DNA of 64,000 nt. Origin: Candidatus Omnitrophota bacterium. Its GTDB lineage: Bacteria; Omnitrophota; Gorgyraeia; Zapsychrales; Aceulaceae. Both the position numbers and the translations under genes were made by a program. This document shows, one piece after another, positions 1-48,614 of this stretch. Position 1 is the stretch's first letter, and every line of letters begins with the position of its first letter. The notes beneath the pieces were generated by a model that did not search any database, was not told where the DNA came from, and worked only from the letters and a program-made list of their open reading frames with translations. Where the stretch lies: assembly GCA_028693815.1 (NCBI GenBank), contig JAQUUP010000004.1:29683-93682 (forward strand), written 5' to 3'.

Positions 1-396
1 CTGGATTCGAGTGAGCTTTTGCCTTTTCTATCCAGGGATGAAAGAGTTTTAAGCTCAGCTTTATTTATTGATAAAGGTTCGGATAAATTTGAAGTCGTAT
101 ATTTTGACGCGAATACAATAAAAATTAGAACAGATTTTGAAGAAAGAAAATTCCTAGTTTATAACGACAGTTATCTTCCTGACTGGCATGTTTTTGTTAA
201 CGGGGAAGAAAAGGAAGTTTTTCGTTCTAATATAGCTTTTAAAGGTGTGGTGTTGCCTGCAGGGAAAAATTTTGTTGAATTTAAGTATATGTTTTTAGGA
301 GATTCACGCGCGCACTTGATGATTCTGACTATGTTTAGCGTATTTTTTCTTGTGCTAATTTTTTCTTTATGGAATTTATCTAAAAAAAAGAAATAA
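1..396 (+). CDS. 3'-terminal part of a large membrane protein (YfhO-like C-terminus); the gene starts upstream of the window
   Basis: The frame is open from position 1 with no stop. The C-terminal motif ...YLPDWHVFVNGEEKEVFRSNIAFKGVVLPAGKNFVEFKY plus a final TM helix resembles YfhO-family C-termini. Confidence 0.5.
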   Translation: MDSSELLPFLSRDERVLSSALFIDKGSDKFEVVYFDANTIKIRTDFEERKFLVYNDSYLPDWHVFVNGEEKEVFRSNIAFKGVVLPAGKNFVEFKYMFLGDSRAHLMILTMFSVFFLVLIFSLWNLSKKKK

Positions 397-400
397 GCTT

Positions 401-1273
401 ATGAGTATTTTTATAAAATTAAAAGAAGTTTTTGTTAGATCAAAATTTATTTTTTCGAAGTTTTGGATTGTTTTCCTGTTTTTTTTAATTCTTTTTTACT
501 CTTTTGTTAACAACAAAACTAATTTTTATGAGATTAATGATTTAATTGATAAGGTACACATAGAGGAAGAAATAGGTTTTTATATTTCTGAAGGAACGGA
601 GATCGAGTCAGAAAGATTGCAAAAAGCTATTTGGTTCTATGATCTTTTAGGTGAGGCTATTGGTTTTGACGAATATGTTCTTGGCAATATTGCAGCATGT
701 TATTTTTGCCTTGGTGATTATAAAGACTCTATTAAATTTTACGATAAGGCAATTGCGATCAATCCTCGTTTGTATACTTTTTATTTCGACAAGGCTATTG
801 TTAATATGCGTTTGCAAGAATATGAAAAGTCTCTTGAGTTGTTTGGCATGGCTTTTCGCCAAATACCTGCTACTTTTAAATATTATTTTGATTTCTTTAA
901 AGATATAGCAAAAGAGAGGCGAGAACGTTTTCGCTTAGAAGGGAGACTCTGGACTCCCGAAAAGGTTAATTCTCTTTTAAGTGATGATTTTTATTTTATT
1001 GAAGAAAGGATAAAGGAAGATTTAGTTCTAATGGTTAAAGAATTAAACAAAATCGCGCTATCATCAAATGGTAATTCAAAATTGCAATTAGAGGCTGGAG
1101 AATTAAAGGATCGAATTGAGTTGTATCAAAGGACCACAGGGGCAGCTTTCTTGAATGCAGAGAGCAGATTAGAGCATGACAGCAACAGTCAAGGTGCTGG
1201 GATTGTCCATTTTAATTTCCAGAATTTTAGAACCATGCTCATGATGGCATCATTGATTGATTCTAGGATTTAA
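401..1273 (+). CDS. TPR-repeat protein with an N-terminal membrane anchor
   Basis: There is a hydrophobic N-terminus followed by TPR-like repeats (LGDYKDSIKFYDKAIAINP..., YEKSLELFGMAF). Confidence 0.6.
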   Translation: MSIFIKLKEVFVRSKFIFSKFWIVFLFFLILFYSFVNNKTNFYEINDLIDKVHIEEEIGFYISEGTEIESERLQKAIWFYDLLGEAIGFDEYVLGNIAACYFCLGDYKDSIKFYDKAIAINPRLYTFYFDKAIVNMRLQEYEKSLELFGMAFRQIPATFKYYFDFFKDIAKERRERFRLEGRLWTPEKVNSLLSDDFYFIEERIKEDLVLMVKELNKIALSSNGNSKLQLEAGELKDRIELYQRTTGAAFLNAESRLEHDSNSQGAGIVHFNFQNFRTMLMMASLIDSRI

Positions 1274-1329
1274 TAAAATATTTTTAATGAAATTTTAATT
1301 ATATAGATTATTTTCTTTTAAGCATTTAT

Positions 1330-1347
1330 TAGTGAAATAATTCACAG
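1330..1347. promoter_or_regulatory. Rex operator-like inverted repeat (copy 1), tAGTGAAATAATTCACag
   Basis: GTGAA-N4-TTCAC matches the Rex box core TTGTGAA-N4-TTCACAA. An identical 17-mer occurs again at 1466-1482. Confidence 0.55.
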
Positions 1348-1438
1348 TTAGTAATAATTCTGTAATTATGTAAGTTCTTTATCTGCAACATCTAACATCA
1401 TCTCATAAGATAATATAATAATTACTTGAAATATTTAC

Positions 1439-1466
1439 TTGACAAGTTTATATTTGATGCTATATT
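1439..1466 (+). promoter_or_regulatory. sigma70-like promoter TTGACA-16nt-TATATT upstream of rex
   Basis: TTGACA at 1439-1444 and TATATT at 1461-1466. The second Rex box overlaps the -10 and transcription start region. Confidence 0.5.
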
Positions 1467-1482
1467 AGTGAAATAATTCACT
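1466..1482. promoter_or_regulatory. Rex operator-like inverted repeat (copy 2), overlapping the -10 of the rex promoter
   Basis: It has the same TAGTGAAATAATTCAC sequence as copy 1, 19 nt upstream of the rex start, which is the arrangement expected for autoregulation. Confidence 0.55.
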
Positions 1483-1500
1483 TAAATATTGGGAGGTTTG

Positions 1501-2136
1501 ATGGATTTACCCGCTAATACAATTGAAAGAATCACAAAAATATATGGATATCTTGACGCATTAGCAGAGAGAGAAGTGGATTTTGTTTCTTCGAAAGAAT
1601 TGGCTGAGGCTGTGGGCACAACGGATCATACAATTCGAAAAGATGTTAGCCTTTTAAAAATTACAGGTTACACCAGAAAAGGGTATTGTGTTCGATCTTT
1701 AAAGGGCGAGCTAGCTAAAAAGCTCGAGCTTGATAAAGAGCGAAAGGCCTGTATTGTTGGTTTAGGCAGGCTTGGAACAGCGCTCTTAGACTATGAAAAG
1801 GCTAAACAGGATGGATTTAAGATTGTGGCAGGATTTGATTGCAGCATTAATAAGCTTGAGAGGATTCGTGCTTCGATTGATGTATTTTCGATGAGTGAGC
1901 TTGAAAACATCATTAAAGGCCGCAATATCGATCTTGGCATTATTACAGTGCCCGCTAAAGCTGCTCAAGAGGTAGCTGATCAGTTGATTGCAGCTGGAAT
2001 AAAAGGAATTCTTAATTTTTCTCCAGCAAAGATTGTTGTGCCAAAGAATATTATTTATGTGGATATGGATTTTACAAATGCTTTGCGTTTTATGGCAGTA
2101 AAGTTTATTACTAAAAAGGAAGCCCCGCGCCCTTGA
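1501..2136 (+). CDS. rex: redox-sensing transcriptional repressor Rex
   Basis: A winged-helix N-terminus is followed by a Rossmann fold (GLGRLGTALLDY...GFKIVAGFD) typical of Rex. The ATG at 1501 follows GGGAGG. Confidence 0.85.
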   Translation: MDLPANTIERITKIYGYLDALAEREVDFVSSKELAEAVGTTDHTIRKDVSLLKITGYTRKGYCVRSLKGELAKKLELDKERKACIVGLGRLGTALLDYEKAKQDGFKIVAGFDCSINKLERIRASIDVFSMSELENIIKGRNIDLGIITVPAKAAQEVADQLIAAGIKGILNFSPAKIVVPKNIIYVDMDFTNALRFMAVKFITKKEAPRP

Positions 2137-2215
2137 GAATCAGGGCTGGGGTAAATTCGCACAAATAACTTAACGCTCCATCGTAGTCGCGTAAGTTATG
2201 TGCTCATTTAAGAAA
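2123..2215 (+). repeat. structured hairpin element copy C: GC hairpin, then TAAATTCG, long imperfect hairpin, CTCATTTAAG
   Basis: It shares conserved ends and CTTRACG...CGTAAG internal boxes with the copies at 29911-29998 and 35180-35272. The stems differ in sequence but stay complementary. It lies directly 5' of the serC RBS. Confidence 0.6.
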
Positions 2216-2228
2216 GTGGAGGATTGAA

Positions 2229-3311
2229 ATGGCAAGAGTATACAATTTTAGTGCAGGACCAGCAACGTTACCAGAGGAAGTTTTAAAGAAAGCCGCAAGC
2301 GAAATGCTTGATTACAATGGATGCGGTATGTCTGTTATGGAAATGTCGCATCGAGGAAAAGAGTTTCAGAAGATTTTCGATACTGCTGAAGCGACTTTGC
2401 GAGAAATTATGGCAATCCCTGAAAATTATAAAGTTTTGTTTTTGCAGGGTGGGGCGTCTATGCAATTTGCTGCTGTTCCGCTAAATTTAATGACTAAGAA
2501 TAAAAAAGCAGATTATGTTCACACTGGCCAATGGACGAAAAAAGCAATTGCTGAAGCTAAGAAATTAGGCACGGTTAACGTGGTAGCCAGCTCTGAGGAC
2601 AAGAATTTTTCTTATATTCCAGAGCTTGATTCTAAAACATTTTCGAAAGATGCAGATTATTTTTATATTGTGACTAACAATACTATTTATGGAACATGTT
2701 ATAAAAATATTCCTGAAACAGGTAATGTGCCGATTATTGCGGATATGTCGTCTAATATTTTGTCAGAACCAATTGATGTGAAGAAATTTGGTGTTATTTT
2801 TGCGGGTGCGCAAAAGAATATTGGTCCTGCAGGCCTGACTCTTGTAATTATTCGTGAGGATTTAATCGGTAATGCTGCAGAGAATATACCAACATTACTT
2901 GATTATAAGGTGCAGGCGGATAATGGTTCTATGGCCAATACGCCACCTTGTTATGCTATTTATATGGCAGGGTTAGTTTTTGATTGGATTAAAAAACAAG
3001 GTGGATTGATTACAATGAAGAAAATTAATGAGGAAAAAGCAGCAATTCTTTATGATTTTATTGACCAGTCAAAACTTTTTAGTTGTCCAGTAGAAAAGAC
3101 AAGCCGATCATTGATGAATGTTCCGTTTGTTACGGGAGATGATGAATTAGATACTAAATTTATCTCGGAGGCAACCAAAAGAGGGCTTAAGGCCCTTAAG
3201 GGGCATCGTAGTGTAGGCGGCATGCGTGCAAGTATTTATAACGCAATGCCGATTCAAGGTGTTAAGGCGTTAGCTGAGTTTATGAAGGAATTTGAAACGG
3301 CAAATAAATAA
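2229..3311 (+). CDS. serC: phosphoserine aminotransferase
   Basis: The N-terminus NFSAGPATLPEEVL...HRGKEF and overall length match SerC. GGAGG lies upstream of the start. Confidence 0.9.
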   Translation: MARVYNFSAGPATLPEEVLKKAASEMLDYNGCGMSVMEMSHRGKEFQKIFDTAEATLREIMAIPENYKVLFLQGGASMQFAAVPLNLMTKNKKADYVHTGQWTKKAIAEAKKLGTVNVVASSEDKNFSYIPELDSKTFSKDADYFYIVTNNTIYGTCYKNIPETGNVPIIADMSSNILSEPIDVKKFGVIFAGAQKNIGPAGLTLVIIREDLIGNAAENIPTLLDYKVQADNGSMANTPPCYAIYMAGLVFDWIKKQGGLITMKKINEEKAAILYDFIDQSKLFSCPVEKTSRSLMNVPFVTGDDELDTKFISEATKRGLKALKGHRSVGGMRASIYNAMPIQGVKALAEFMKEFETANK

Positions 3312-3345
3312 GTTTATTAATTTTTAAAATTAAGAGAGGTTTAAC

Positions 3346-4521
3346 ATGTATAAAATAAAAACACTTAATAAGATTTCAGCAGAAGGATTAGCTGGTCTTC
3401 CTTTAGATCAATATGAAATCGGAACAGAGATTGCACAGCCAGATGCAATTATTCTTCGAAGTTTTAAAATGCATGATATGGAGCTTCCCGATTCTTTGTT
3501 GGCCGTAGGCCGCGCAGGAGCAGGAGTTAATAATATTCCAATTGAAAAATGTTCTGAAAAAGGAATTGTTGTTTTTAATACGCCAGGAGCGAATGCTAAC
3601 GCGGTTAAAGAGCTTGTTATTGTAGGCATGCTTTTAGCTTCTCGAGATATTGTTTCGGGCATTGTCTTTGCTCAGAGCTTGAAAGGAAAAGGAGGGCAGG
3701 TTCCTGCGTTAATCGAGGAAGGTAAAAAGAATTTTGCTGGGCAAGAAATTGCCGGCAAGACGTTAGGTGTTGTCGGTCTTGGTAAAATTGGCGTTATGGT
3801 CGCTAATGCAGCGCTTGATTTAGGCATGAATGTCATTGGATACGATCCTTTTATTTCGGTTGAATCTGCTTGGGGGTTATCAAGAGATGTTCAGAGGGCC
3901 GATGGGCTTGATGCGCTTATTGCGAATAGTGATTATATTTCTTTGCACACACCTTTAAGCAATGAAACTAAAGGCATGATTAGCGAAGAGAAATTTCTTC
4001 GAATGAAGAAAAATGTTCGTATTCTTAATTTTTCTCGCGGAGGTATTGTGAATAATGATGACTTAAAAACAGCGATTGAAAAAGGTATTGTTGCTCGTTA
4101 TGTGACAGATTTTCCAGATGACGAGCTTTTAAATATGGATAAAGTTATTGCGATTCCGCACCTTGGAGCATCAACGGCAGAGGCTGAGGGCAACTGTGCA
4201 ACGATGATCGTTAAGCAATTACGTGATTTTATTGAAACAGGAAAGATTAAGAATTCTGTGAATTTTCCAAATTGCAAGCTTGAGCAAGGCTCAGATTATC
4301 GGCTTGTGATTATGAATAAAAATATTCCTAATATGGTCGGACAGATTTCTTCGATTTTGGCTAAAGCTAATATTAACATTACTGAAATGTTGAACAAAAG
4401 CAAAGGTGATTATGCTTGTAATATTATTGACATTTCTGATGAGCCGAACGAAAAGCTTATCAAGTCGCTTTATGGTGTTCAGGGTGTTATCAAGGTTAGA
4501 GCGATTAATTTAAAGAAATAA
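3346..4521 (+). CDS. serA: D-3-phosphoglycerate dehydrogenase (short form with C-terminal ACT domain)
   Basis: A 2-hydroxyacid dehydrogenase NAD-binding core (GKTLGVVGLGKIG) is followed by an ACT-like tail. It is adjacent to serC. Confidence 0.85.
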   Translation: MYKIKTLNKISAEGLAGLPLDQYEIGTEIAQPDAIILRSFKMHDMELPDSLLAVGRAGAGVNNIPIEKCSEKGIVVFNTPGANANAVKELVIVGMLLASRDIVSGIVFAQSLKGKGGQVPALIEEGKKNFAGQEIAGKTLGVVGLGKIGVMVANAALDLGMNVIGYDPFISVESAWGLSRDVQRADGLDALIANSDYISLHTPLSNETKGMISEEKFLRMKKNVRILNFSRGGIVNNDDLKTAIEKGIVARYVTDFPDDELLNMDKVIAIPHLGASTAEAEGNCATMIVKQLRDFIETGKIKNSVNFPNCKLEQGSDYRLVIMNKNIPNMVGQISSILAKANINITEMLNKSKGDYACNIIDISDEPNEKLIKSLYGVQGVIKVRAINLKK

Positions 4522-34460: not shown

Positions 34461-37400
34461 ATGAATAAAAATATATTAAAGAATAGACCTTTTTTAAGGG
34501 CGATTTCCCTATTTGTTATTTTGGCTTTTGGGGAGAGCGTGCTTATTCCTCAATATGTTCCTAAGGTTTTGGCGCAGAGTGCTTTAGGAGTTCCTTCTTC
34601 AGGTGCAGTTATTCATTTAAGTCAGCCATTTACGCCTGTTATTTTTAGGGGTTTAAAGGTTTTCCCAAAAGATCCCCTAAGATTTGATTTTATTGTTGAT
34701 CGTGCTGATTCTAAGCTTGAAAAGGAAGAATTTAAGTCTGAAACCGAAAAATTAATTCGTTACTTTTTGGCATCTTTGACAATTCCTGAAAAAGACCTTT
34801 GGGTTAATCTTTCTCCGTATGAGCAAGACCGCATTATTCCACGAAGTCTTGGAAAAACAGAGATGGGAAAAGATATGCTAGCTCAAGATTATTTGCTAAA
34901 GCAAATCACAGCTTCTTTGATTCACCCAGAGGGTGACACAGGCAAGAAGTTTTGGCAACGAGTTTATAGTCGGGCTTATCAAGAATATGGCACAACTGAA
35001 ATTCCTGTGGACACGTTTAACAAGGTTTGGATTATGCCTCAAAAGGCTGTTGTTTATGAATTTGGAGATCGGGCTTTTGTGCTTGAGAGCAAGCTAAAGG
35101 TAATGCTGGAAACAGACTATTTGGCAATGCAAGAAGATAGAAGGGAGAGGATGGAAGATAGAGGAGGTGTTCCGATTTTGACTGCTGGGTCGCAGTCAAA
35201 ACGGAATAAATTCGCGCAGGCTGACTTGACGTCGACTCAAAGTCTCCGTAAGTCAGGCGCTCATTTAAAAAGCAAGTTAGCCTCTGACATTATCCGCGAT
35301 ATTGTTATTCCCGAATTAGAAAGCGAAGTCAATTTTGGTGAGAATTTTGCGCAATTGCGCCAAATCTATCATTCCATGATTTTGGCAGCATGGTTTAAAA
35401 AGAAACTTAAAGGATCGATCCTCAATCAAGTTTATGCGGATCAGAACAAAATTAAAGGCGTTGATTTAGTTGAAGAGAATGTTTCGCAAGAAATTTATGA
35501 TCAATATTTACAAGCATTTAAAAAAGGTGTTTGTGATTTTATTAAAGTCGAACATGATCCATATACGAATAAGAATATTCCAAGAAAATATTTTTCCGGC
35601 GGTATCGAATGGGTGGCATCAAGTAATATTGAATATGTTACAAATATTTCGAGTCAGCCGCCTGTTTGGGTGTCGAGCTCAAGCCTTGAAGGTGTTGATT
35701 TGAATCTCAAGCCGGTTTTCGATGCTCCTGATCAAGAAGCAGGATCTAATATCGTAGATCTAATTTCGGCTTTAAGCTTAGCTGGATATCCTCAAAAAAA
35801 GAATCAACAAAGAAATATTGTTTTGATTGGTTCAATAGATAGTCTTGAAAGCGCAATCTTTCTTTCAAATAAGTTTCCAAAATCAATTATTTATGTTGTT
35901 GAGGAAGATGAACAGTTTTTTGAAGAGCTTAAAAAGCAGCTTAAAGAAGTTGATGACGATCAAAATACGACAGGCATTCAGTTGATCCATGCGCATCCTT
36001 CAGATGTTTCGGATTCTTTGGCTAACGAAATGATTGATTTGGTTTTGATGGACAGTCATGTTGATTATTATGGATACATACAAAATGAACTTCCTGATAT
36101 TTTAAAAGAAATTAAACGTATCCTAAAACCAAAGGGCATTTTTTGTGCTGATTCTATTTCTTATTTTAAAGAAGCAAAACAAGATCTTGAAGTTCTAGGG
36201 TTTTTTTATTCGCAGCCATCTGAAAAAAAATATAAGGATTGGATTTTGGTTGCTGAGAAAAAGATTTCTTCATCTGTCACCGATTCCGCGCAGTCTGTTA
36301 TCTCGGATCTTAAAAAGGACTTGGGTCAAGGACCGTGGGTTTTTTATGCGTTTGGCGAAGTTCCTCATATTTATTGGGATGATAATTTGGATATTGAATT
36401 TTTTAAGAAAAAACAACAAGATTTTCTTAGATCCGCAACGCAATTGTCAAAATCAATTCCTTTTGAATTTGATCTAATACAGAGAGGAAGACTAGATTCT
36501 TTTACTATTGAGCTTCTTAAGAATGCCTATGATGCCCTTTTAGCTGTTTGGGACAAGGAGCTGCCTCAAAAGAATATTGCTTTGAAAAACTATATTCCAC
36601 AAGTAATGTTTGATATGAGTATTGATGATGACTCTTTGATTATTTCGGTTTACGATAATGGAATCGGTGACACAGCAAGTCGAGAGATTTTTACAAAACA
36701 TAAGAATCAAAAAGCTAACGAAGGGAAACGTTATTGTTATCTTGGCGGCGGTGGCTGGGGATTAATAAAGGTGCAGTATATCAAAAGTCTTTATAAAGGG
36801 GATTTTTCCTTAACGCTTGGAAACCGATCTAGCCGTTTTACACATGCAAAGATTACTATTCCTTTATCTAAGCTTGTTATCAAAAACAATGAAAAATTAG
36901 ATAAGCTAAGCTCCTTTTTTATAAAATCTGACTCTGCGCAAGCGAAAGGCAACAAGATTTCTTCGCCTACAACCGACCCCGCGCAGGTGGTCTCAAGCGG
37001 AATCCTTTTACCGGTTGACATCGAAAAAGAAAAACAGGGTTTTATTTCAGATTGGAATAAGTATTATCAGGATGGACTTGGCGCTGAAAAAATGAAGCTG
37101 ATGGTGGAAAAATCTAAAGGGGTCATGTCGATTTATGATTTTATAAAGATATGGATGGTAAAAAGCAAAAAGACGCTCGGAGGATATTCCTTGGGTATCA
37201 ATGAAGAATCTTATTTTGGATTTTGCGATTTGGCTGGACTCACAAATCATTATGAAGGCTATAAAGAGATGGAAATAACGTTTTTTGGGAATCCAGATCA
37301 CAGGTATATCCAAAAAATTTCAGCCACAGGAAAACCAATCGTTTTCTTTATTCCTAAAAACATTTTTACCTATTCAGACAATTATGCACAGCATACAAAA

Positions 37401-40400
37401 ACCGAAATGAGATATTTGCTTGAAAATTTTTCTTATTTAGAAAACGTTTATTTCGTCTTTGGAGCTTATGAGATTATTCCCCAAGAATATGAAGAAGAAT
37501 GGATGGAGAAATGTCCAATCCGGCTTAGCGGAAGAGAATGGTATGCAAAGCTTATCGAGAAGGTTTTTTCTGATGTGAACGACGTACGACGAACATCGAG
37601 CGACGCCCGCCTGCCGGCGAGGCAGGATTCACGCTTCACGATCGGCGAAGCTGCCGCCGACCTGCCTGACCGGCAGGCAGGCTCCGCGCAGGCGGGGGGA
37701 AAGTCCGCAGCCAATAACGAAAGTAAGTCAATCATCTCATCATCGATAGGGGTCAGGATGACTCAAGAAAAATTTAGTCATGAGCTGGGAAGACCTTTAA
37801 GTGAAGGTGAGTGGGCTCTTGTTGATGCGCTTTGGAGAATTGTGCCCTCTTCTAATGAGCAAAATCAATCTCTTTCTATCTGGAAGAGGGTGCGCAATCA
37901 GAAAATCTTTTCTAAAAAAGCATCAAGACCACGTTCTGCAGATGAGGATATTTTAGATATTTTTAGAAAGATGGATTTGGTGTTTAGAGGCGATGCTAAG
38001 CAAAAAAAGGATTTTATTTATCAAATGGAAAATTATGTTCATTTGTATTTAGAGAAAGAAAAGAATTTTGAAGGTTTGGAGCCTTTTGAGTTGCTAAAAA
38101 CGGTGTTAGCTCAAGCTAATCAGTCTCGGCCTTTGGATCGGACATTGATCGTGTTGAGCGATGTAATCGACAGAGGATTAATTAAGTCTGAAGAAACTAT
38201 CGTTGGAATTGCTGAGAAATTTCATTCTGATCCATCTCAATGGAAAGATATTCCTGATCAAAGCTCAAAAAAGAAGTCTATAATCGGGAGAAAACCGGTG
38301 GTTTTGTTGGTTGATGATAATCCAGGCCAGATCAGAGAGCTTAAGGTTTCTTTGGAGAATGCGGGATATGATGTTGACTTTGCCATGGCACCTGAAACAG
38401 GATTGAAGAAAATTGAGGAATCAATCCCTGATCTTATTGTCACCGATTGGGAAATGGCGCCTTTCATGGATGGCATAACATTTATTAAGAGACTTAAAAA
38501 ATCTTATCCAGATATTCCGGTTGTCTTTAGGTCAGGTGACGTTGGAGATGGTGATGACAGCCGTAGCATGCGAGGGAGTTTTATTTTAGCTGCGTTTGAT
38601 AATGTTGTTGCTGTTTCTGGGAAGTTTCGCGAAGAAGATGTCGCATTTCAAAAGATTCAAGAATTCGTCAAAACCTCCAGCCCGATGGGTGATCAGGTAT
38701 CGATAGATCTTGATATGGAAAAACCGCAAAAAGGATCTGTTTACGTAGGAAACGATGAAGTTTTTCCTAAAGCGGTGAGAGAATTTTTAGGAGACAGAAG
38801 AGTTTTGGTTATGGAAAATATATGCGATCAAGAGGTGGATGCGCAAACTCTTTCTTTGGCTCCTAAAAAGATAGACAATCCTGTTGCGCTTAGAGTGATT
38901 GTTGTAAGGTCAGCAGATAATCTGGAGGATAAAAAGCCTCTTTGCAATGTCTTTGTTTTGGATGCCTCAGATAAAGATGCTCCTATGTTGGCGTATTCAA
39001 GCATGAAGATGAACACGGAAGAAGGCTATTATATGCAGACATGGTCGAAAAGGACAGCTCCTTTTAGTATTCCAAGACAAGCTTTTATTCAACGGTCAAT
39101 AGTTTTATTGTTAGCTAAGGGAGGCATAAAGGAGCATAGATCTGATACTGAGGGAGGCTTGCAAAATGATCGATCTAACGATAGATATCTTAATATGAAG
39201 AACGATTCTCGCCTTGAGGTCATTGCTGATAAGGGCTATATTGTTAGATATATTGGTGCTTCGAGTGGTTTGATGGGGGATGGAAATGCTGAAGACAGTG
39301 ATCAGGATTTGCATATAACGGAGGCGCTTCGAAAAAAAATATCAGAAAGTGGCATGGTTAAGGCGTTTTCGGAAACCGAATTTTTTGAGGATCAAAGGAT
39401 TAAGAATGAAGATGATTTAATTGAGGCCCTTAATAAACATTCTCAAGGAGTATTTGATATTAGAGAGTTTAAGCAAAGAGAGTTTTTAGAAGACGTTTAT
39501 GCGTTTGGACCACGCGGAGAAAGACATAACAAAGTAGTTGAGGAATTAGGATTTATCCACTATATGACATCTTTAGAGCCATATAATTTTGTTTTTTCTC
39601 ATTTAATTAAGAAATTAATTCAGGAAAAATCTAAAATTGTTTTTTTTGTTGGCAGAAATCTTGATCAGCAACATTTCACGAAGCTTACAACTGAAGAGTT
39701 GAGATTGCTTTTTGATAAAGAGGGATCCATAGAAAATGTTTATTTTGTTTTTGGTCTTTATGATCCTTTGCCTAATGTTGAGAATGCGTATCAAATAAAA
39801 GAAGATTCTCATGATGATGTAACAGTCGAAATAGAAAAAGGGAGCGAGGACAGGGATCATCGGGTAGTGAAGAAACGCAGAGCCTTTCCCAAAACAGTTG
39901 CCAATGAAAAAGCTGTTAAGAAAATTGAAGAATTTTTAAAAACTGAAAAAGGATTTATCCAATATGTTCTTGATTTTGTGGAGAAAGAAAATGGTCTTAC
40001 TTACTGGTTCTCCGATGGTTTTATCGCCTATCTTAAGAAAAGATTAGAAAAAGAATTTTCAATAAACATAACAACGCGAATGCTTGTCGATTTGTTTGGG
40101 CTTAATTCGGGTCTCTATAGCCTAGGGTTAAATGATAAGAATTTGAAAACAGGAGGAATTAGGGATAGCACCCGAGATGTTTTGATGAGTGATTTTATGA
40201 GCCATCAAGGGCCAGAGGCAGAAAAATCAAAACGATATTTTATTGAATTATGTTCAAATAAATATGTTCAAAAAATGTTTAAAAATCTTGAGCCAGGAGC
40301 GGTATCGATTAGGGATGGTGTTACGCTTTTTGATTATTTGCTTAAACGTCTAAAAGAAAGTTTTTCAGGCTACGTTATCGATTTTATCAATTCAGGTGGA

Positions 40401-43400
40401 AATTCTTTTTGGGATTTAAAAGGTTCACAAGGACTTTATGCCTATTCAAAGAAAAGGCTTGAGCAACACTTAGGTGGAGAGATAACAAATCTCATGTATT
40501 CTAATTTGCTAGGTTTTTCTTTTCCTAGTTCAGAAAAAAGGCGCCTTACAGGTGTTATATATAGTAAAACAAGAGATTTGATAGTTGCAAGATTTAGGCT
40601 TGAAGGAGAAGCGAGAAAAGGCATAGATAAAATTTATGAAAATCAAACAAGAAATATCGATGAGGAAAAGCTGCGCACAATAAGATTAAAATCAAAAGCT
40701 GAGAATTATATTCGGGGAGGGGCGTTTGAGAAGTATGTAGTTGATTATATTAAGAAATATGGATCAGGAGTTTTTGCAGATACTAAGGGGAAAGAAGGTT
40801 TTTATTTTTATGCTAAAGAAAGAGTAGAGCTTGATCTCAACGCCAAGATAGATGATTTGCTTTTTAATCGTATTTTAGGGGTTAAATTTAATTTATCAAA
40901 GAAAAAGAGATTTCATACAAGATCTATGCTGATGAACCTTAAAAAGATCGATCTGATATGCAATAAATTTAATATCGACAAAAAAATTAAGAAATATTTA
41001 AAAGGTATATGTTTTCAGAGTAGAGAGGGGAAAAAAGCTATTCTTAATGACTTTTATGTCCCATATTTTAAAGAAAAGCTTGAAGAATATTTAAAGCGAG
41101 GGGATCAGAATATTGTAAGCCTTTTTGGGAAAGATGGATTTTTTTACTATCTTTTTACTAGGGGATCTTTTTTATTGGAAGCGCACGCGCAATTTCTTGG
41201 TGTTGAAGAGGATGTTTTGGCTAATTTAATGGAAGGAAACATCGAAGGGTCCATTCTCGATGAATTAAAATCGATTCCGATTACCATAGGTCTCAGCGCT
41301 AAATTGAAAAATATATTTTTGAATCTTTTAGAAGAAGAAAAGGAAAACAAAAAGTTTTCTGGCATAACTAATTTAAAGGAGTTCGCTTTTGGTCCCAAAA
41401 GGCAGGTTTTAGAATCGGTAGCTTCTAGCGTTGTTACGCTTAGAGACGGCAGCACGATTCCTGAGAGCGTGTATCGAAATGTGCGTGATGCTCTTGGCTT
41501 GCCAGACAACAGAAATCCTGAAAAGAAGTATTTTACAATTTTTCAGGGTGGCAGCAGTGATGAGGCAATAAGGATTTTGAGCCTAATTGCTTCTAAAGAA
41601 AATTTTAATAAAAATGATTTTTTAAATTTAGCGATGGGTGGCAACCGGGATTTGTTTAAAGATATTTTGCGTTATTTAGCAGAAAAAAATTTGGTTGTTT
41701 TTAGTGGAAAGTTTGAAGACAATATAAAATTTGATCGAGATAGCAGCTTGTCTATGGATAGCACAGTTGCGCTCTTGATTCGCGCAAGCATTGATACGAG
41801 CGGAGACCCTTTCAGAGGAACTACATATTTTGCTTTTCAAGATCCGCTTTCGCAGGATAGTAGTAAGATTTCTTCTCCCACCATTGACCTCGCGCAGGCC
41901 ATGACGGCAGGGGAAAAAACGAGTTCATCAGGTATCAAGCTTATCGATTCGAAATCGGTCAAGCAAGCCATTGAAGAGGCGAGTCCGTTCGATATTCAGG
42001 TTAATGGTCAAAAGATCCCCATTTATTTGTATTGTAATTTTTCTGATGATCTTAGGGCATACAAAAAGAATGTTGTTTCGTTGATGATCCAAGCGATGCC
42101 TTTTGGCAGGAATGTCCGTTCTCAAGAATACAGAGAGGGGATTGAGGGTCACCCGGCGCTTTCGAACCTTTTGAATATTTCATCTGATCTTGGAGAGCTT
42201 GAGAGAGGTGGGTTTTTTGGTTTACTAACTGCGTCCCTTGAGCAAAGATCTGATGGAAGCGTGGTTTTGTATTTTGAAGAGAATCAGTTTTCGAGCAATT
42301 TTAAGCGCATTAAGCCGGGTAGTGCGCGCAAAGCATATGAGGAGTGGGTTCCTCGAGCTCATAAACATCTCATTGATGTTTTAAAGAAAAATTTTAATGT
42401 GGTAGATGTATATGCGCTTTCCAAAGACGTTATCCATGAACATTATAAGAATGACCGCATTAGTAAGGCGCGGCTGAAAGGTGTATTTAAAAAAGACGCG
42501 GATGCGATCTGGAATGATCTTGTCGACCATCAATGGATTTTTTCATATTCTGTTGACGGATATGACATCGCGCGCGTTAATCCTGTGCCGCCTCAAGGCC
42601 GTGAAAGATTGGCCGGAGATTGGGATATGGAGAGATTAGATCGCTTTTTAAGTACTCCTCAATCGAAGGTGAGCGGAGAGAATTTAAGAGAAGCTTATAG
42701 CCTCCCTTATAATAGACCAGAGTGGCGACGCGTGACCATGCCTCTTCCTGAGGCTTTACGTTTCCAATGGGGAAACTCATTTTGGGGAAACACCGCAATA
42801 GTTGGCGATGTTGAACTTTATCATTATGAGCCGATGGGGGATGAGGCGCAAGGCAACAAGATTTCTTCGCCCACCTCCATTGACCCCGCGCAGGGAGGGA
42901 AAACTTCCTCTCCAACATTAGCTGAAATGCTTGTAGCATCGGAAGGGATTCCAAAATTTTTAATGGAAACGGCAAAAAGCGTTCTTTTTGAGAATGACGA
43001 GAAAATTAAGGAATTTTTAGGTATAGAGCAGATTAGAAGTGTTCGGTGTCGACCTTATTTTTTACATACACCATTGAGCCTTTTAGTTTTTACATTTGAG
43101 ACTGAAAAAGGACAAAGATCAATTTATGTTAAGCGTAAATGCTCTGACTTTGAACAAGAGCTTACTCTTGACGCTTCTCGGGAAGAGGTCTTTCCTCCAA
43201 GTATGATTTTAAATGAGTCCGATGGCAGAAAGGCACTGTTTATTCGAGGAATAGATGATGGGGCTTCTTTGGAAAAAGTTAAAAAAGACCCCGATTGGAA
43301 GAAGTTCTTTTTGAACAATGAAGAACATTTCGTTAAAAAAATAGGAAATCAATACGGAAAATTAAATAAAAAGGCAGATGTTATGCATCACGATGTTCTT

Positions 43401-45158
43401 CTAAGGCATATATTTATTACAAAAAATAAAAAGGTATTCTTAATTGATTTAACAACAGAAGATGATGATGGAAATCCGATGTCGTCTAGATGGAGGGGCA
43501 TGCTCCACTATCTAGGCGAGGATCTTTATAAGGTAAAAGGAAAAATTTTTAGTTTTGTCCGCGATCTTTATTCGAGCGACTTGGTTTCTGGAAAAATGTT
43601 ATTTAATGATTTTAAAAAGAAAGAAAATTTTTATCAACAGTGGGTTCAAGGAGGATATGACGAAATACCTGAAGAGGTTAATAGGCCCAGTAAAGAAAAG
43701 AATCCCTATTTTCCGGGGAAAGAAGAAATTGCCTCCAGCCCCGCTCAGGTAGGAGAGAGAGTTATTTCTCTGGATGATTATAGTAAGGGTGATTCAGATA
43801 TTCAAGGAAAAGCAGGTCAGTCGGCTGTCTATTTTTCCGAAGACGGGAAACATGTTTTAAAGATATTTAACAAAGATTTGGTTAAAAAGTATGTAAGTGA
43901 TGGCGAAATTTCCGATGCACATGTAGTTATTATGGCTAAAATTATATTGAATCTCTCTGAAGAAATGAAAAGAAAGTTCATGGACTCAAAAATAAAAATT
44001 GTAGTTCCTGAGCTTGTAAGAATCAAAAATGGTCCTTTGGCCCTTTTGTCAAAAAGAATAAAAGGGGGAGAGCCGTCTTTCTTAGATCGAGGAGCAGTTA
44101 AGAAGATAAGTGAATTTCGCGAACGGATTTCCGGCCTTCTTGCGTTTCCTATTCAGGACAGAAGAGAATTAGATTACACAAATTTTTTAATTGATGAGCT
44201 CACAGGGCAAATTTATTGTATTGATTTGATTGACATGATTAGCTTGTTCTACATTCTTGATCAGATCGAAGAGAAACCTTTTGACGACCTGGATCGGATT
44301 AGTAAAAGATTTATAAAAGATGATTTTGATAAAAAATCCATCTCCTTACCCATCGGCAAAGCCATCTCCGACCCCGCGCAGGCAGGGGATGGTGATCGTA
44401 GTCAAACGCTTGTGCAACGCTTTACAGGTAATTCTGTCATGGCAACTATTTCACAACGTAATAATGATGTGATCCAATTTATTAAGAATTTTCTTGAAAG
44501 CGATTCTATTTTTATAAAGGAAGCCATTAACCAAGGTGAGAATTTCTCAGATGAAGAAGTTAATAGTAGATGGAAGAAGATTTTAGAAGATTTTAGCAAA
44601 GATTTAGGCCCAAATCAGATTGTTGATAATTTAAAAGATTTTTTAAACATAGAAACGATAGGAAATTATGATATTCATCAAATGATATCTCATCAGATAA
44701 CGATTGCGCTAGGGGCCCTTGAGACTTTAACGGCCATTAAAAAGAAAAAGCCTGAAAAATGGACGGATCAAGAATATAACGCCGCGGTAGCCGAATGGGA
44801 GACAAGGGTAAAAGATTACGGCTTCCAAGCTTATATTACTTTGCGCGCTATTGAACTTGCTGCAAGAGAGGAAAAAATATCCTCTGTTTTCATAAACCAA
44901 ACAACCGGCGGTATTGATTTTGATCGAGACAATTGGGAGCTGGAGACTAGAGGCGAAGGAATTGAATTTGAGATTCCAGCGGAGCTTCAAGGGGTTAATT
45001 TTGATGAAATTCAAGGTTTTGTGCCTGTTATCATTAATATTGTGCCAATCACAAATATTTTGCTGATTCTCGGATTAAGTGAAAAAGATATTAAGAATCT
45101 TAAGTGGGCACAAGAGTTGCAAGTTGCAGATAAGCCTAGGGAATTAAGTCTGCTTTAG
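34461..45158 (+). CDS. giant 3565-aa multidomain protein: N-terminal signal/anchor, CCoAOMT-like SAM-methyltransferase core, GHKL ATPase, CheY-like receiver, duplicated unknown module, two atypical kinase-like cores
   Basis: A single open frame of 10,698 nt. Motif-level domain assignments are given in the findings. A promoter-like TGGCAA-17-TATACT lies upstream. Confidence 0.8.
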   Translation: MNKNILKNRPFLRAISLFVILAFGESVLIPQYVPKVLAQSALGVPSSGAVIHLSQPFTPVIFRGLKVFPKDPLRFDFIVDRADSKLEKEEFKSETEKLIRYFLASLTIPEKDLWVNLSPYEQDRIIPRSLGKTEMGKDMLAQDYLLKQITASLIHPEGDTGKKFWQRVYSRAYQEYGTTEIPVDTFNKVWIMPQKAVVYEFGDRAFVLESKLKVMLETDYLAMQEDRRERMEDRGGVPILTAGSQSKRNKFAQADLTSTQSLRKSGAHLKSKLASDIIRDIVIPELESEVNFGENFAQLRQIYHSMILAAWFKKKLKGSILNQVYADQNKIKGVDLVEENVSQEIYDQYLQAFKKGVCDFIKVEHDPYTNKNIPRKYFSGGIEWVASSNIEYVTNISSQPPVWVSSSSLEGVDLNLKPVFDAPDQEAGSNIVDLISALSLAGYPQKKNQQRNIVLIGSIDSLESAIFLSNKFPKSIIYVVEEDEQFFEELKKQLKEVDDDQNTTGIQLIHAHPSDVSDSLANEMIDLVLMDSHVDYYGYIQNELPDILKEIKRILKPKGIFCADSISYFKEAKQDLEVLGFFYSQPSEKKYKDWILVAEKKISSSVTDSAQSVISDLKKDLGQGPWVFYAFGEVPHIYWDDNLDIEFFKKKQQDFLRSATQLSKSIPFEFDLIQRGRLDSFTIELLKNAYDALLAVWDKELPQKNIALKNYIPQVMFDMSIDDDSLIISVYDNGIGDTASREIFTKHKNQKANEGKRYCYLGGGGWGLIKVQYIKSLYKGDFSLTLGNRSSRFTHAKITIPLSKLVIKNNEKLDKLSSFFIKSDSAQAKGNKISSPTTDPAQVVSSGILLPVDIEKEKQGFISDWNKYYQDGLGAEKMKLMVEKSKGVMSIYDFIKIWMVKSKKTLGGYSLGINEESYFGFCDLAGLTNHYEGYKEMEITFFGNPDHRYIQKISATGKPIVFFIPKNIFTYSDNYAQHTKTEMRYLLENFSYLENVYFVFGAYEIIPQEYEEEWMEKCPIRLSGREWYAKLIEKVFSDVNDVRRTSSDARLPARQDSRFTIGEAAADLPDRQAGSAQAGGKSAANNESKSIISSSIGVRMTQEKFSHELGRPLSEGEWALVDALWRIVPSSNEQNQSLSIWKRVRNQKIFSKKASRPRSADEDILDIFRKMDLVFRGDAKQKKDFIYQMENYVHLYLEKEKNFEGLEPFELLKTVLAQANQSRPLDRTLIVLSDVIDRGLIKSEETIVGIAEKFHSDPSQWKDIPDQSSKKKSIIGRKPVVLLVDDNPGQIRELKVSLENAGYDVDFAMAPETGLKKIEESIPDLIVTDWEMAPFMDGITFIKRLKKSYPDIPVVFRSGDVGDGDDSRSMRGSFILAAFDNVVAVSGKFREEDVAFQKIQEFVKTSSPMGDQVSIDLDMEKPQKGSVYVGNDEVFPKAVREFLGDRRVLVMENICDQEVDAQTLSLAPKKIDNPVALRVIVVRSADNLEDKKPLCNVFVLDASDKDAPMLAYSSMKMNTEEGYYMQTWSKRTAPFSIPRQAFIQRSIVLLLAKGGIKEHRSDTEGGLQNDRSNDRYLNMKNDSRLEVIADKGYIVRYIGASSGLMGDGNAEDSDQDLHITEALRKKISESGMVKAFSETEFFEDQRIKNEDDLIEALNKHSQGVFDIREFKQREFLEDVYAFGPRGERHNKVVEELGFIHYMTSLEPYNFVFSHLIKKLIQEKSKIVFFVGRNLDQQHFTKLTTEELRLLFDKEGSIENVYFVFGLYDPLPNVENAYQIKEDSHDDVTVEIEKGSEDRDHRVVKKRRAFPKTVANEKAVKKIEEFLKTEKGFIQYVLDFVEKENGLTYWFSDGFIAYLKKRLEKEFSINITTRMLVDLFGLNSGLYSLGLNDKNLKTGGIRDSTRDVLMSDFMSHQGPEAEKSKRYFIELCSNKYVQKMFKNLEPGAVSIRDGVTLFDYLLKRLKESFSGYVIDFINSGGNSFWDLKGSQGLYAYSKKRLEQHLGGEITNLMYSNLLGFSFPSSEKRRLTGVIYSKTRDLIVARFRLEGEARKGIDKIYENQTRNIDEEKLRTIRLKSKAENYIRGGAFEKYVVDYIKKYGSGVFADTKGKEGFYFYAKERVELDLNAKIDDLLFNRILGVKFNLSKKKRFHTRSMLMNLKKIDLICNKFNIDKKIKKYLKGICFQSREGKKAILNDFYVPYFKEKLEEYLKRGDQNIVSLFGKDGFFYYLFTRGSFLLEAHAQFLGVEEDVLANLMEGNIEGSILDELKSIPITIGLSAKLKNIFLNLLEEEKENKKFSGITNLKEFAFGPKRQVLESVASSVVTLRDGSTIPESVYRNVRDALGLPDNRNPEKKYFTIFQGGSSDEAIRILSLIASKENFNKNDFLNLAMGGNRDLFKDILRYLAEKNLVVFSGKFEDNIKFDRDSSLSMDSTVALLIRASIDTSGDPFRGTTYFAFQDPLSQDSSKISSPTIDLAQAMTAGEKTSSSGIKLIDSKSVKQAIEEASPFDIQVNGQKIPIYLYCNFSDDLRAYKKNVVSLMIQAMPFGRNVRSQEYREGIEGHPALSNLLNISSDLGELERGGFFGLLTASLEQRSDGSVVLYFEENQFSSNFKRIKPGSARKAYEEWVPRAHKHLIDVLKKNFNVVDVYALSKDVIHEHYKNDRISKARLKGVFKKDADAIWNDLVDHQWIFSYSVDGYDIARVNPVPPQGRERLAGDWDMERLDRFLSTPQSKVSGENLREAYSLPYNRPEWRRVTMPLPEALRFQWGNSFWGNTAIVGDVELYHYEPMGDEAQGNKISSPTSIDPAQGGKTSSPTLAEMLVASEGIPKFLMETAKSVLFENDEKIKEFLGIEQIRSVRCRPYFLHTPLSLLVFTFETEKGQRSIYVKRKCSDFEQELTLDASREEVFPPSMILNESDGRKALFIRGIDDGASLEKVKKDPDWKKFFLNNEEHFVKKIGNQYGKLNKKADVMHHDVLLRHIFITKNKKVFLIDLTTEDDDGNPMSSRWRGMLHYLGEDLYKVKGKIFSFVRDLYSSDLVSGKMLFNDFKKKENFYQQWVQGGYDEIPEEVNRPSKEKNPYFPGKEEIASSPAQVGERVISLDDYSKGDSDIQGKAGQSAVYFSEDGKHVLKIFNKDLVKKYVSDGEISDAHVVIMAKIILNLSEEMKRKFMDSKIKIVVPELVRIKNGPLALLSKRIKGGEPSFLDRGAVKKISEFRERISGLLAFPIQDRRELDYTNFLIDELTGQIYCIDLIDMISLFYILDQIEEKPFDDLDRISKRFIKDDFDKKSISLPIGKAISDPAQAGDGDRSQTLVQRFTGNSVMATISQRNNDVIQFIKNFLESDSIFIKEAINQGENFSDEEVNSRWKKILEDFSKDLGPNQIVDNLKDFLNIETIGNYDIHQMISHQITIALGALETLTAIKKKKPEKWTDQEYNAAVAEWETRVKDYGFQAYITLRAIELAAREEKISSVFINQTTGGIDFDRDNWELETRGEGIEFEIPAELQGVNFDEIQGFVPVIINIVPITNILLILGLSEKDIKNLKWAQELQVADKPRELSLL
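35180..35272 (+). repeat. structured hairpin element copy B, located in-frame inside the giant ORF
   Basis: The hairpin GACTGC-TGGGTC-GCAGTC is followed by TAAATTCG, a long hairpin (GCAGGCTGACTTGACG...CGTAAGTCAGGCGC) and TCATTTAAAAAG. It is translated as ...KRNKFAQADLTSTQSLRKSGAHLKSK... Confidence 0.6.
37570..37720 (+). repeat. GC-rich (about 70% GC) island with two perfect GC hairpins, in-frame inside the giant ORF
   Basis: The hairpins are CCTGCC-GGCGA-GGCAGG and CCTGCCTG-ACCGG-CAGGCAGG, embedded in an otherwise ~35% GC gene. The island encodes ...SSDARLPARQDSRFTIGEAAADLPDRQAGSAQAGG... Confidence 0.7.
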
Positions 45159-48170: not shown

Positions 48171-48614
48171 ATGGAAATAACAGAAATTCGAGTATTCTTA
48201 AAAGACGGACAAGACAAGAAGCTCAAAGCATACACAACAGTTACTTTTGATGATTGTTTTGTCGTTCGGAATATTAAGGTTATTCAGTCGACAAATGGGC
48301 TTTTTATTGCGATGCCTTCACGTAAGGTGAGGTTATCGTGTCCTAAATGTCATTTTAGAAATGAAATAGGTAGTAAGTTTTGTAATCATTGCGGTGCTGG
48401 ATTAAGTGTTAAGAATGTTTCGGCGGCTACGCCTGAAGATTCAAAAGCAGAGCATCGTGATATCGCGCATCCTGTTACGAAAGAGTTTCGTGATCAACTG
48501 CAAAAAAAAGTTTTAGAAGCATATGAAAAAGAAGTGGGATCTAGTAGCGCAAAGGAAAAAAAGCCTTTAGAAGAAGACGTTGCAGATAGTATTTTAGGGA
48601 CTGAAGATTATTAA
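48171..48614 (+). CDS. spoVG: SpoVG-family protein with an inserted CxxC...CxxC zinc ribbon
   Basis: The SpoVG core MEITEIRVF...NGLFIAMPSRKV ... EHRDIAHPV is interrupted by RLSCPKCHFRNEIGSKFCNHCGAG. Confidence 0.8.
   Translation: MEITEIRVFLKDGQDKKLKAYTTVTFDDCFVVRNIKVIQSTNGLFIAMPSRKVRLSCPKCHFRNEIGSKFCNHCGAGLSVKNVSAATPEDSKAEHRDIAHPVTKEFRDQLQKKVLEAYEKEVGSSSAKEKKPLEEDVADSILGTEDY

Follow-up and report, generated by a model that had tools for sequence, protein, structure and literature searches.

A single gene with two conserved ends

We analysed a 64,000-nt stretch of DNA from a Candidatus Omnitrophota bacterium (GenBank assembly GCA_028693815.1, contig JAQUUP010000004.1, positions 29,683 to 93,682 of the forward strand), referred to here as the window. 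The gene under study is a single uninterrupted open reading frame (ORF) on the plus strand at 34461-45158, with 3565 codons plus stop and no internal stops. Its product is identical to NCBI entry MDD3374565.1, annotated 'MAG: response regulator [Candidatus Omnitrophica bacterium]' (MAG, metagenome-assembled genome) on a 106-kb contig. A 3565-amino-acid (aa) ORF cannot have arisen by chance in DNA of 37% G+C. An earlier note, made by a model from the letters alone, had described one unbroken frame with a hydrophobic N-terminus, flanked by ppiD and hisG, and had pointed to Omnitrophota. It was right on each point: the hydrophobic segment covers aa 10-33, a PpiD/SurA-like rotamase lies on the minus strand and HisG downstream, and MDD3374565.1 comes from an Omnitrophota MAG. 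The note had also called the architecture unprecedented and knew of no described family, and here it was mistaken. The gene belongs, as an ordinary member, to an Omnitrophota family that is very large, lacks a formal description and is absent from Pfam and NCBIfam, and the conserved N- and C-terminal 'handles' that define the protein (hereafter head and tail) had been overlooked.

A whole-protein search, as the note had proposed for related MAGs, returned at least 1100 homologues, of which the best 120 are 1960-5414 aa long (homologues carry P numbers here; P0001 is this protein). Where an organism is named among these 120, it is always Omnitrophica, Omnitrophota or Ca. Aceula, the last being placed in Omnitrophota. 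By BLAST coverage, the only regions of the query shared with the other 119 homologues, of 2-5.4 kaa (thousand amino acids), are residues 1-400 and ~3470-3555; in the subjects the first is always at the N-terminus and the second always at the C-terminus. The head of P0001 is 44-65% identical to those of the 119 homologues and matches the family profile, whose alignment includes this head, at E 1e-174 over residues 6-422.

When the profile built from the head alignment of family homologues was run against a library of 1.84 billion proteins, it matched 8376 clusters (50% identity), with E<=1e-30 for 6747 of these, and the matches listed all lie at residues ~3-370. Head and tail define a family of at least 6747 such clusters, with several paralogues per Omnitrophota genome. 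Species-representative genomes hold at least 582 head loci, at 4-5 or more copies in each genome; the best 80 of these loci are in MAGs named Omnitrophota, Omnitrophica or Aceula, or in 'uncultured Planctomycetales' and 'uncultured bacterium' entries.

Among members with both ends, lengths run from 731 aa to >5400 aa. One cargo only is present in the shortest, such as a Ser/Thr kinase (Pkinase), a methyltransferase, DUF218 or a J-domain (DnaJ). Across the homologues, the Pfam domains found between the ends include methyltransferases, GNAT, HATPase_c, receivers, M48 plus ABC1, HAD, PGK, PGI, TIM, FBPase and PEP-utilising enzymes, among others, and many paralogue cargos score strongly (Pkinase E 5e-23, TIM E 4e-25). 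At one other locus (L002, 10001-23278), two members of 2154 and 2223 aa stand head to tail in tandem. The second of them carries Peptidase_M48 plus ABC1, a pairing that recurs in many paralogues (e.g. P0004, P0029, P0063, P0092 and P0108).

Head, tail and predicted topology

The head (residues 1-422, a predicted signal peptide followed by a ~380-aa domain) has no relative in Pfam, NCBIfam or PDB. By hydropathy, the whole protein has just two hydrophobic segments, aa 10-33 and aa 3517-3541. In 219 family members, the net charge ahead of the hydrophobic h-region is +3.4, and the predicted cleavage site has a median position of 36, with +1 occupied by Gln in 88% and -3 by a small or aliphatic residue in 77%; Ala at -1 anchored the search pattern. 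By the general rules for such sequences, this pattern would mark a Sec signal peptide with a site for signal peptidase I. The codons at the predicted site here (38-39) are GCG CAG, the same two that are used at the junctions described below.

The tail comprises ~95 aa (here aa 3472-3565), with GGIDF, PVIINI and ELSLL in that order; its part at aa 3484-3565 is common to 111 of 120 proteins and is always C-terminal. Its consensus reads GGIDLNxxxLxLxxxGxG..F..P...I.GFxPVIINIxPVTNLPLLLGL, after which comes a charged stretch, often with E(L/I)S(L/Y)L at its end. In an AlphaFold model the tail is extended and non-globular (predicted local distance difference test, 74; predicted template modelling score, 0.27). 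Many members share a third conserved element, a short one, at or near the extreme C-terminus (here aa 3559-3565): (E/K)E(L/I/V)S(L/Y)L, which is seen as ELSLL here and appears as KELSYLN, RELSLLKD and KEVSLLN in homologues.

When the tail alignment served as query, only short fragments and a few small ORFs were returned, and no link to the giants of >10 kaa emerged. The small ORFs (P0254, P0284, P0303, P0319, P0351 and P0363) encode 80-115 aa, consist of little beyond the tail, and lie on contigs of 72-155 kb. Tail proteins that stand alone could account for them, or giant genes broken up by frameshifts.

Replacement of the interior at one chromosomal position

The order AhpC-PpiD(-)-giant-HisG recurs in Ca. 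Aceula meridiana (L001), where the giant has 4783 aa. In Ca. Aceula lacicola (L003) and at a further locus (L010), the order AhpC-PpiD(-)-giant is found, and the fetched flanks stop short of the downstream gene. Between L003 and the locus studied here, PpiD is 75% and the head 70% identical, but similarity ceases precisely at residue 422: over the 970 residues that follow, the L003 protein matches no part of this one. With the 4783-aa orthologue, alignment is limited to head (55%), tail (49%), methyltransferase (27%) and a single repeat module (44%). At L001 and L010 alike, synteny is kept and the interiors differ. From one close relative to the next, a single chromosomal locus has thus had its module array exchanged in its entirety.

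Modules are also shared between giants. The module at aa 1414-1598 is 65% identical to residues 3638-3822 of P0008, an otherwise different giant of 5096 aa. Since the cargo differs between syntenic relatives and this module is shared with a different giant, we regard the interior as an exchangeable array of cassettes between constant ends. Complete replacement of cargo at a syntenic locus is a pattern typical of genes for conflict or host interaction.

Junction motifs at module borders

The motif (K)ISSPT-x-D-x-A-Q occurs, whole or in part, at six or more places in this protein (junctions 1-6 in Table 1), and related forms follow the receiver (KTSSPMGD) and stand just ahead of the tail (KISSVF). 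The earlier note had seen these as recurring low-complexity linkers; recurring they are, but they are specific junction motifs, a meaning that it missed. Modules common to different giants start or stop at them. Family membership, a modular anatomy and junction motifs at the module borders all hold for this protein.

The motifs vary by lineage. D-x-A-M occurs 283 times in the 120 family proteins against 32 expected. Where this protein has ISSPT.D.AQ, others have D.AM in 10-16 copies (P0044, P0070 and P0085), ASSPV in 17 copies (P0034) or ASSDI (P0015). The receiver of P0085 (3703-3818) is bracketed by motifs at 3693 and 3824, that of P0034 (1953-2054) by motifs at 1947 and 2080, and PfkB and GNAT domains of family members are bracketed likewise. 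The border rule is imperfect: one SSP copy, at position 690 of P0034, falls inside a TIM match.

In this gene the junctions are conserved even at synonymous codon positions (junction vs gene-wide use: Ala GCG 8/9 vs 28%, Gln CAG 9/9 vs 34%, Pro CCC 4/4 vs 13%, Asp GAC 4/5 vs 22%). The nonamer YCGCGCAGG is present in seven copies in the window against 0.21 expected, six of them in this gene, and one copy is found in the orthologous gene of Ca. Aceula meridiana. The junction is also conserved as DNA (GACCCCGCGCAGG), in codons rare in the gene, at 36975-36992, 37680-37697, 41886-41903, 42882-42899, 43737-43754 and 44370-44387. It would seem that either the junctions have recently spread or undergone gene conversion, or the DNA or RNA itself is under selection.

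Four other explanations of the junctions were rejected. A Chi-like genome-wide signal does not fit a DNA motif with 6/7 of its window copies within one gene. Retained start codons of fused genes could have explained D-x-A-M, but ASSPV and ASSDI of other lineages lack Met. An acid-labile Asp-Pro bond was discarded as well, x not being Pro in most family members, and so was signal peptidase I as the junction protease, for the Asp at -3, a residue that this enzyme would be expected to disfavour there.

Modules of the interior

The best-supported module is a CheY-like receiver, which the earlier note had placed correctly in mid-protein. Response_reg (PF00072) matches aa 1281-1360 at E 1e-14 (55.1 bits vs a cut-off of 30.2), many response regulators in NCBIfam and PDB match as well, and the translation retains the receiver residues: the DD pair in VDDNP, the aspartate in TDW, the Ser in RSG and the Lys in GKF.

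For the methyltransferase that the note had proposed, the profile gives a mixed answer. Methyltransf_11 (PF08241) matches ~aa 466-577 with 25.9 bits when the segment is scanned alone, above the cut-off of 21.2, but with 20.1 bits, just below it, in a whole-protein scan. Motif I is degenerate, reading LIGSIDS without the GxGxG glycines. The module is 27% identical to P0002 residues 1328-1483.

The proposed GHKL domain is likewise a plausible assignment of fold, for which all tests agree in direction and none reaches a curated threshold. HATPase_c matches aa 681-802 with 19.9 bits, under the gathering cut-off of 26.4 (E 1e-3), covering profile positions 9-109 of 111; there are weak NCBIfam matches to histidine kinases and HtpG; and a two-sequence profile of the module matches the ATP-binding domain of YycG at E 1.6e-3. 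As the note had it, no HisKA lies upstream: Pfam scans of the whole protein and of its segments gave no HisKA-type match at E<=10.

Of the two kinase-like cores that had been suggested, the first in sequence order, at aa 2870-3070 (HHDVLLRHIFI...VFLIDL), has a match to the Kdo/WaaP kinase family (PF06293) on aa 2925-2998, though below the cut-off (19.1 bits vs 21.3; E 9e-4). Its catalytic loop reads HHDVLLRH, with His where HxDxxxxN has Asn. The module is homologous to P0034 residues 3507-3713, and both end at an ASSP junction. The other, at aa 3097-3262 (HVLKIF...YCIDLIDM), found no profile support, with no Pfam, NCBIfam or PDB match; kinase-like motif order is what it has. It is 37-39% identical to P0007 residues 1154-1323, in which the order GxxGxSxVY, VLK, N, ID is kept and Asn stands at the position aligned with the catalytic-loop Asp. 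Two-sequence profiles of both kinase-like modules found no kinase in PDB.

The note's duplicated module was recovered, since residues 950-1007 resemble 1716-1771, and tandem repeats lie further on (Table 1). These internal repeats surfaced in a windowed self-search, and a whole-protein self-BLAST gave none. Pfam scans of the whole protein and its segments found no glycosyltransferase (GT), glycoside hydrolase (GH), peptidase, NUDIX or SecA domain and no adhesin-type repeats (Ig, cadherin, dockerin, beta-helix); Pfam and NCBIfam scans of the same scope found no signature of TpsA, autotransporters, the C-terminal domain (CTD) of type IX secretion (T9SS), MARTX, or sortase/exosortase.

Table 1. 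Features of the 3565-aa protein and its gene, with window coordinates
Feature	Residues	Position	Strand	Basis or remarks
Whole gene	1-3565	34461..45158	+	3565 codons plus stop; identity to MDD3374565.1
Predicted Sec signal peptide	1-38	34461..34574	+	Hydropathy and family statistics; K/R-rich n-region, h-region aa 11-29, VLA↓Q
Conserved N-terminal 'handle' domain	39-422	34575..35726	+	Invariant WVNLSP.E and RKYFSGG motifs
In-frame ~100-nt element, two hairpins	236-268	35163..35260	+	RNA fold z = -5.5; in variable loop of head
Class I S-adenosylmethionine (SAM) methyltransferase-fold module	430-600	35748..36260	+	Methyltransf_11 25.9 bits vs gathering cut-off (GA) 21.2; degenerate motif I (LIGSIDS)
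Junction 1: KKISSSVTDSAQ	600-612	36258..36296	+	
GHKL (HATPase_c-like) module, without HisKA partner	681-805	36501..36875	+	Sub-threshold profile matches
Junction 2: SDSAQAKGNKISSPTTDPAQ	823-843	36927..36989	+	
In-frame G+C-rich island		37597..37700	+	Two CCTGCC...GGCAGG hairpins; ends in junction-type CCGCGCAGG; fold z = -2.6
CheY-like receiver	1278-1400	38292..38660	+	Pfam, NCBIfam and PDB matches
Module without assigned function	1414-1598	38700..39254	+	Bounded by KTSSPMGD upstream and GASSG downstream
Tandem repeats, 3-4 x ~125 aa	1827-2180	39939..41000	+	Repeats also in P0002 and P0010
Junction 3: KISSPTIDLAQAM	2469-2481	41865..41903	+	
Junction 4: QGNKISSPTSIDPAQGGKTSSPT	2797-2822	42849..42926	+	
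Kinase-like module	2870-3070	43068..43670	+	Kdo/WaaP-like stretch 2925-2998; His for usual catalytic-loop Asn
Junction 5: IASSPAQV	3090-3097	43728..43751	+	
Second putative kinase-like module	3097-3262	43749..44246	+	Motif order only
Junction 6: ISDPAQAG	3302-3309	44364..44387	+	
Conserved C-terminal 'handle'	3472-3565	44874..45155	+	KISS, GGIDF, hydrophobic FVPVIINIVPITNILLILGL (3520-3539), charged tail ending ELSLL

Comparison with known giant and modular proteins

The Omnitrophota are nanobacteria, abundant and uncultured, that probably live as parasites or predators, and the working of their giant multi-enzyme proteins is a standing problem. Giant ORFs occur across the phylum, according to Seymour et al. 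2023 (PMC10066038). In a preprint on Omnitrophota proteins of >=10 kaa (10.64898/2026.06.07.730766), PF08241, PF02518, GNAT, HAD and PF00072 are among the commonest domains, methyltransferase, HATPase_c and receiver belong to the two largest domain co-occurrence modules, and 94% of the proteins have a signal peptide or transmembrane (TM) helices. The mix of methyltransferase, HATPase_c and receiver that the earlier note took to be novel is therefore already listed there for Omnitrophota multi-enzyme giants. A second preprint (bioRxiv 10.1101/2023.11.21.568195) defines 'Archaeovorins' (>30,000 aa), in which the same PF08241/PF02518/PF00072 mix appears and cleavage into smaller products is suspected, with the cleavage points declared unknown.

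Archaeovorin-type giants resemble this protein in phylum and in domain repertoire (PF08241, PF02518 and PF00072 here; GNAT, HAD and sugar-metabolism enzymes in paralogues), and also have frequent signal peptides, poor sequence conservation and suspected post-translational cleavage. The giants of the two preprints have >=10,000 or >=30,000 aa, tens to hundreds of TM helices, and C39/S8 peptidase and SecA-like domains. In contrast, this protein has 3565 aa and two hydrophobic segments, with no internal TM helix and none of the C39/S8/SecA-like domains. It thus falls outside the Archaeovorin definition in length and TM content (>30,000 aa, numerous TM helices), and of the mixed repertoire it has the methyltransferase, HATPase_c-like and receiver domains, whereas GT, GH, peptidase, NUDIX and SecA are missing from the Pfam scans. 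A conserved head and tail, junction motifs and a class of 0.7-5 kaa find no mention in the searched parts of 10.64898/2026.06.07.730766, 10.1101/2023.11.21.568195 and PMC10066038, in a literature search of limited reach. The ends and the junctions thus appear new, while the domain mix was already known from Omnitrophota giants.

Other families offer analogies of layout. In hybrid two-component sensor kinases, as here, a GHKL ATPase fold and a receiver share one polypeptide. This protein differs in having no HisKA/DHp, and its GHKL module and receiver are 470 residues apart, with unrelated modules and a junction between. MARTX toxins (Vibrio RtxA) have conserved N- and C-terminal regions around a strain-variable array of effectors, which is recombined and released by inter-domain processing; they leave by type I secretion, without a Sec signal peptide. 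Constant ends and a swappable interior are what the two have in common, as an analogy only and with no sequence relationship, and the glycine-rich repeats and cysteine protease domain of MARTX were not found in this protein by Pfam scan. TpsA/CdiA proteins have a signal peptide, a conserved N-terminal domain recognised by an export partner, a variable distal part and a demarcation motif (VENN in CdiA). They and polymorphic toxins are analogous to this protein in signal peptide, conserved N-terminal domain, swappable part and short demarcation motif. In contrast to them, it has no TPS/Haemagg_act domain, beta-helix repeats or toxin-immunity pair, it has many junctions rather than one, and its tail is conserved too.

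A predicted export carrier and its alternatives

Our overall reading, which we hold to be evenly poised, is that of an Omnitrophota-specific protein with cargo between two handles: a multi-enzyme carrier, built from cassettes, exported by Sec and possibly processed at its junctions. Export in itself we judge rather probable. The earlier note's suggestion of a secreted or surface-anchored multi-enzyme protein can be reconciled with the family-wide Sec-type signal peptide and with the lack of any further strong hydrophobic segment before the C-terminal tail. Processing at the junctions is a tentative proposal, with the chances somewhat against it.

The polypeptide would be exported via Sec, and signal peptidase would cut it at VLA↓Q. 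Because ~50% and ~30% identity are kept in head and tail over thousands of otherwise unrelated proteins, both would be constant parts that bind a common partner, which could be a machine for secretion or translocation or an anchor in the envelope, or they could bind each other. Ultra-small host-dependent cells would display the variable cargo at their surface or deliver it from there, and the junctions may be recombination joints at which cassettes are exchanged, sites of cleavage that frees modules from a polyprotein, or both. A bolder version, which we think distinctly speculative, makes head and tail the recognition parts of a previously unrecognised, phylum-wide platform for export or delivery, which would take cassettes of cytoplasm-type enzymes out of the ultra-small cells and possibly into host or prey; the lineage-specific junctions would be both recombination joints and sites of a co-evolving protease, and the products bacterial polyproteins.

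Several observations weigh against the carrier. The chief difficulty is that the cargo types (SAM-, ATP- and phosphorelay-dependent, with glycolytic enzymes and a J-domain in paralogues) are normally cytoplasmic, and such cargo fits export badly unless it acts inside another cell. In ~14 of 120 homologues (~12%; e.g. P0011, P0017, P0018, P0019, P0055 and P0061) an extra hydrophobic segment directly follows the head, which would return their cargo to the cytoplasm, the inverse of what is predicted for this protein. The C-terminal hydrophobic stretch is merely moderately hydrophobic in most members. The signal-peptide and topology calls come from our own heuristics, based on general rules rather than on a trained predictor, and the model of the head is of medium confidence, which makes 'no known fold' provisional. 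Cleavage at the junctions is a conjecture, as is a protease for it, and the nucleotide conservation of the junctions could reflect mere recent duplication. Finally, several of the enzyme modules look degenerate.

The cytoplasmic character of the cargo also speaks for an alternative that we consider unlikely: a membrane-tethered scaffold for signalling or enzymes that faces the cytoplasm, with an uncleaved N-terminal anchor, as an unorthodox two-component or kinase hub. The receiver, with its intact acidic pocket and phospho-acceptor Asp, would suit such a role, every recognisable module depends on cytoplasmic cofactors, and paralogues carry DnaJ, PGK, TIM, PGI and PfkB. The second hydrophobic segment after the head in some homologues would fit as well, as would the prediction, in 10.64898/2026.06.07.730766, that 46% of long Omnitrophota proteins are TM-only with their bulk in the cytoplasm. 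However, the strongly positive n-region followed by a conserved AxA↓Q predicts an N-in orientation and export of the downstream part; this protein has no second hydrophobic segment before residue 3517 and no HisKA/DHp with which to form a histidine kinase; and a scaffold leaves unexplained why the same head and tail stand on thousands of unrelated cargos.

The signs of decay among the modules, like the cytoplasmic type of the cargo, speak for a surface coat or adhesin, exported as well, in which eroded pseudo-enzymes would serve binding or structure without catalysis or signalling. The methyltransferase, GHKL and kinase modules have marginal hidden Markov model scores, the methyltransferase motif I lacks its glycines, one kinase-like module has His for the catalytic-loop Asn, and the P0007 homologue of the other has Asn for Asp; giant ORFs of Omnitrophota have been suggested to act as adhesins or coats (PMC10066038). 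We find this improbable, as the receiver and many paralogue cargos score strongly as bona fide enzymes and the Pfam scans found none of the repeats typical of adhesins. An assembly chimera, or ordinary genes fused by sequencing errors, is hardly credible despite the MAG origin and the short repeated junctions: the DNA repeats at the junctions are <=36 nt, the gene opens on the head and closes on the tail of the family, exactly like 170 further members of full length, the same layout is seen in syntenic orthologues from three more MAGs, and an Rfam scan of the gene found no Rfam family, intron or ribozyme.

This gene is a small, tractable representative of the Omnitrophota giant-protein problem. 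It offers three footholds: a head found in at least 6700 clusters and absent from Pfam, NCBIfam and PDB, a conserved tail, and short junction motifs at module borders, for which existing metaproteomes can be searched as neo-termini. Being features of a family, they make processing, its sites and the anchoring of Omnitrophota giants directly testable.

Structured DNA in the gene and its surroundings

Two in-frame DNA elements with predicted secondary structure lie within the gene (Table 1). The peptide encoded by the element at 35163-35260 is 69-79% identical in the distant paralogues P0005, P0019 and P0077, against ~50% for the surrounding domain, and L003, the closest orthologue, lacks the element, which resembles a small mobile or structured insert that coding sequence can tolerate. 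The island at 37597-37700 reaches 77% G+C in a gene of 37% G+C, has inverted repeats flanking its hairpins, and codes for low-complexity ARLPARQD...ADLPDRQAGSAQAGG. It is the only place in the window with the CCTGCC...GGCAGG hairpin pattern. Promoter-like and terminator-like sites at the gene are no more frequent than in shuffled sequence.

On the 5' side the gene order is RmuC, a Cu-oxidase_4 protein, AhpC/TSA and the PpiD/SurA-like rotamase on the minus strand; on the 3' side, HisG is followed by a TPR protein, a GHMP kinase, SpoVG, a GlmU-like protein and PRPP synthetase. Every 2-kb bin of the window (1-64000) has a positive GC skew (0.12-0.29), and the plus strand carries nearly all ORFs, which is what a long leading-strand stretch should show. 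The SpoVG homologue (48171-48614) has 147 aa, and its match to the 82-position SpoVG profile is spread over residues 1-120, with a zinc-ribbon match inserted mid-profile at residues 57-78.

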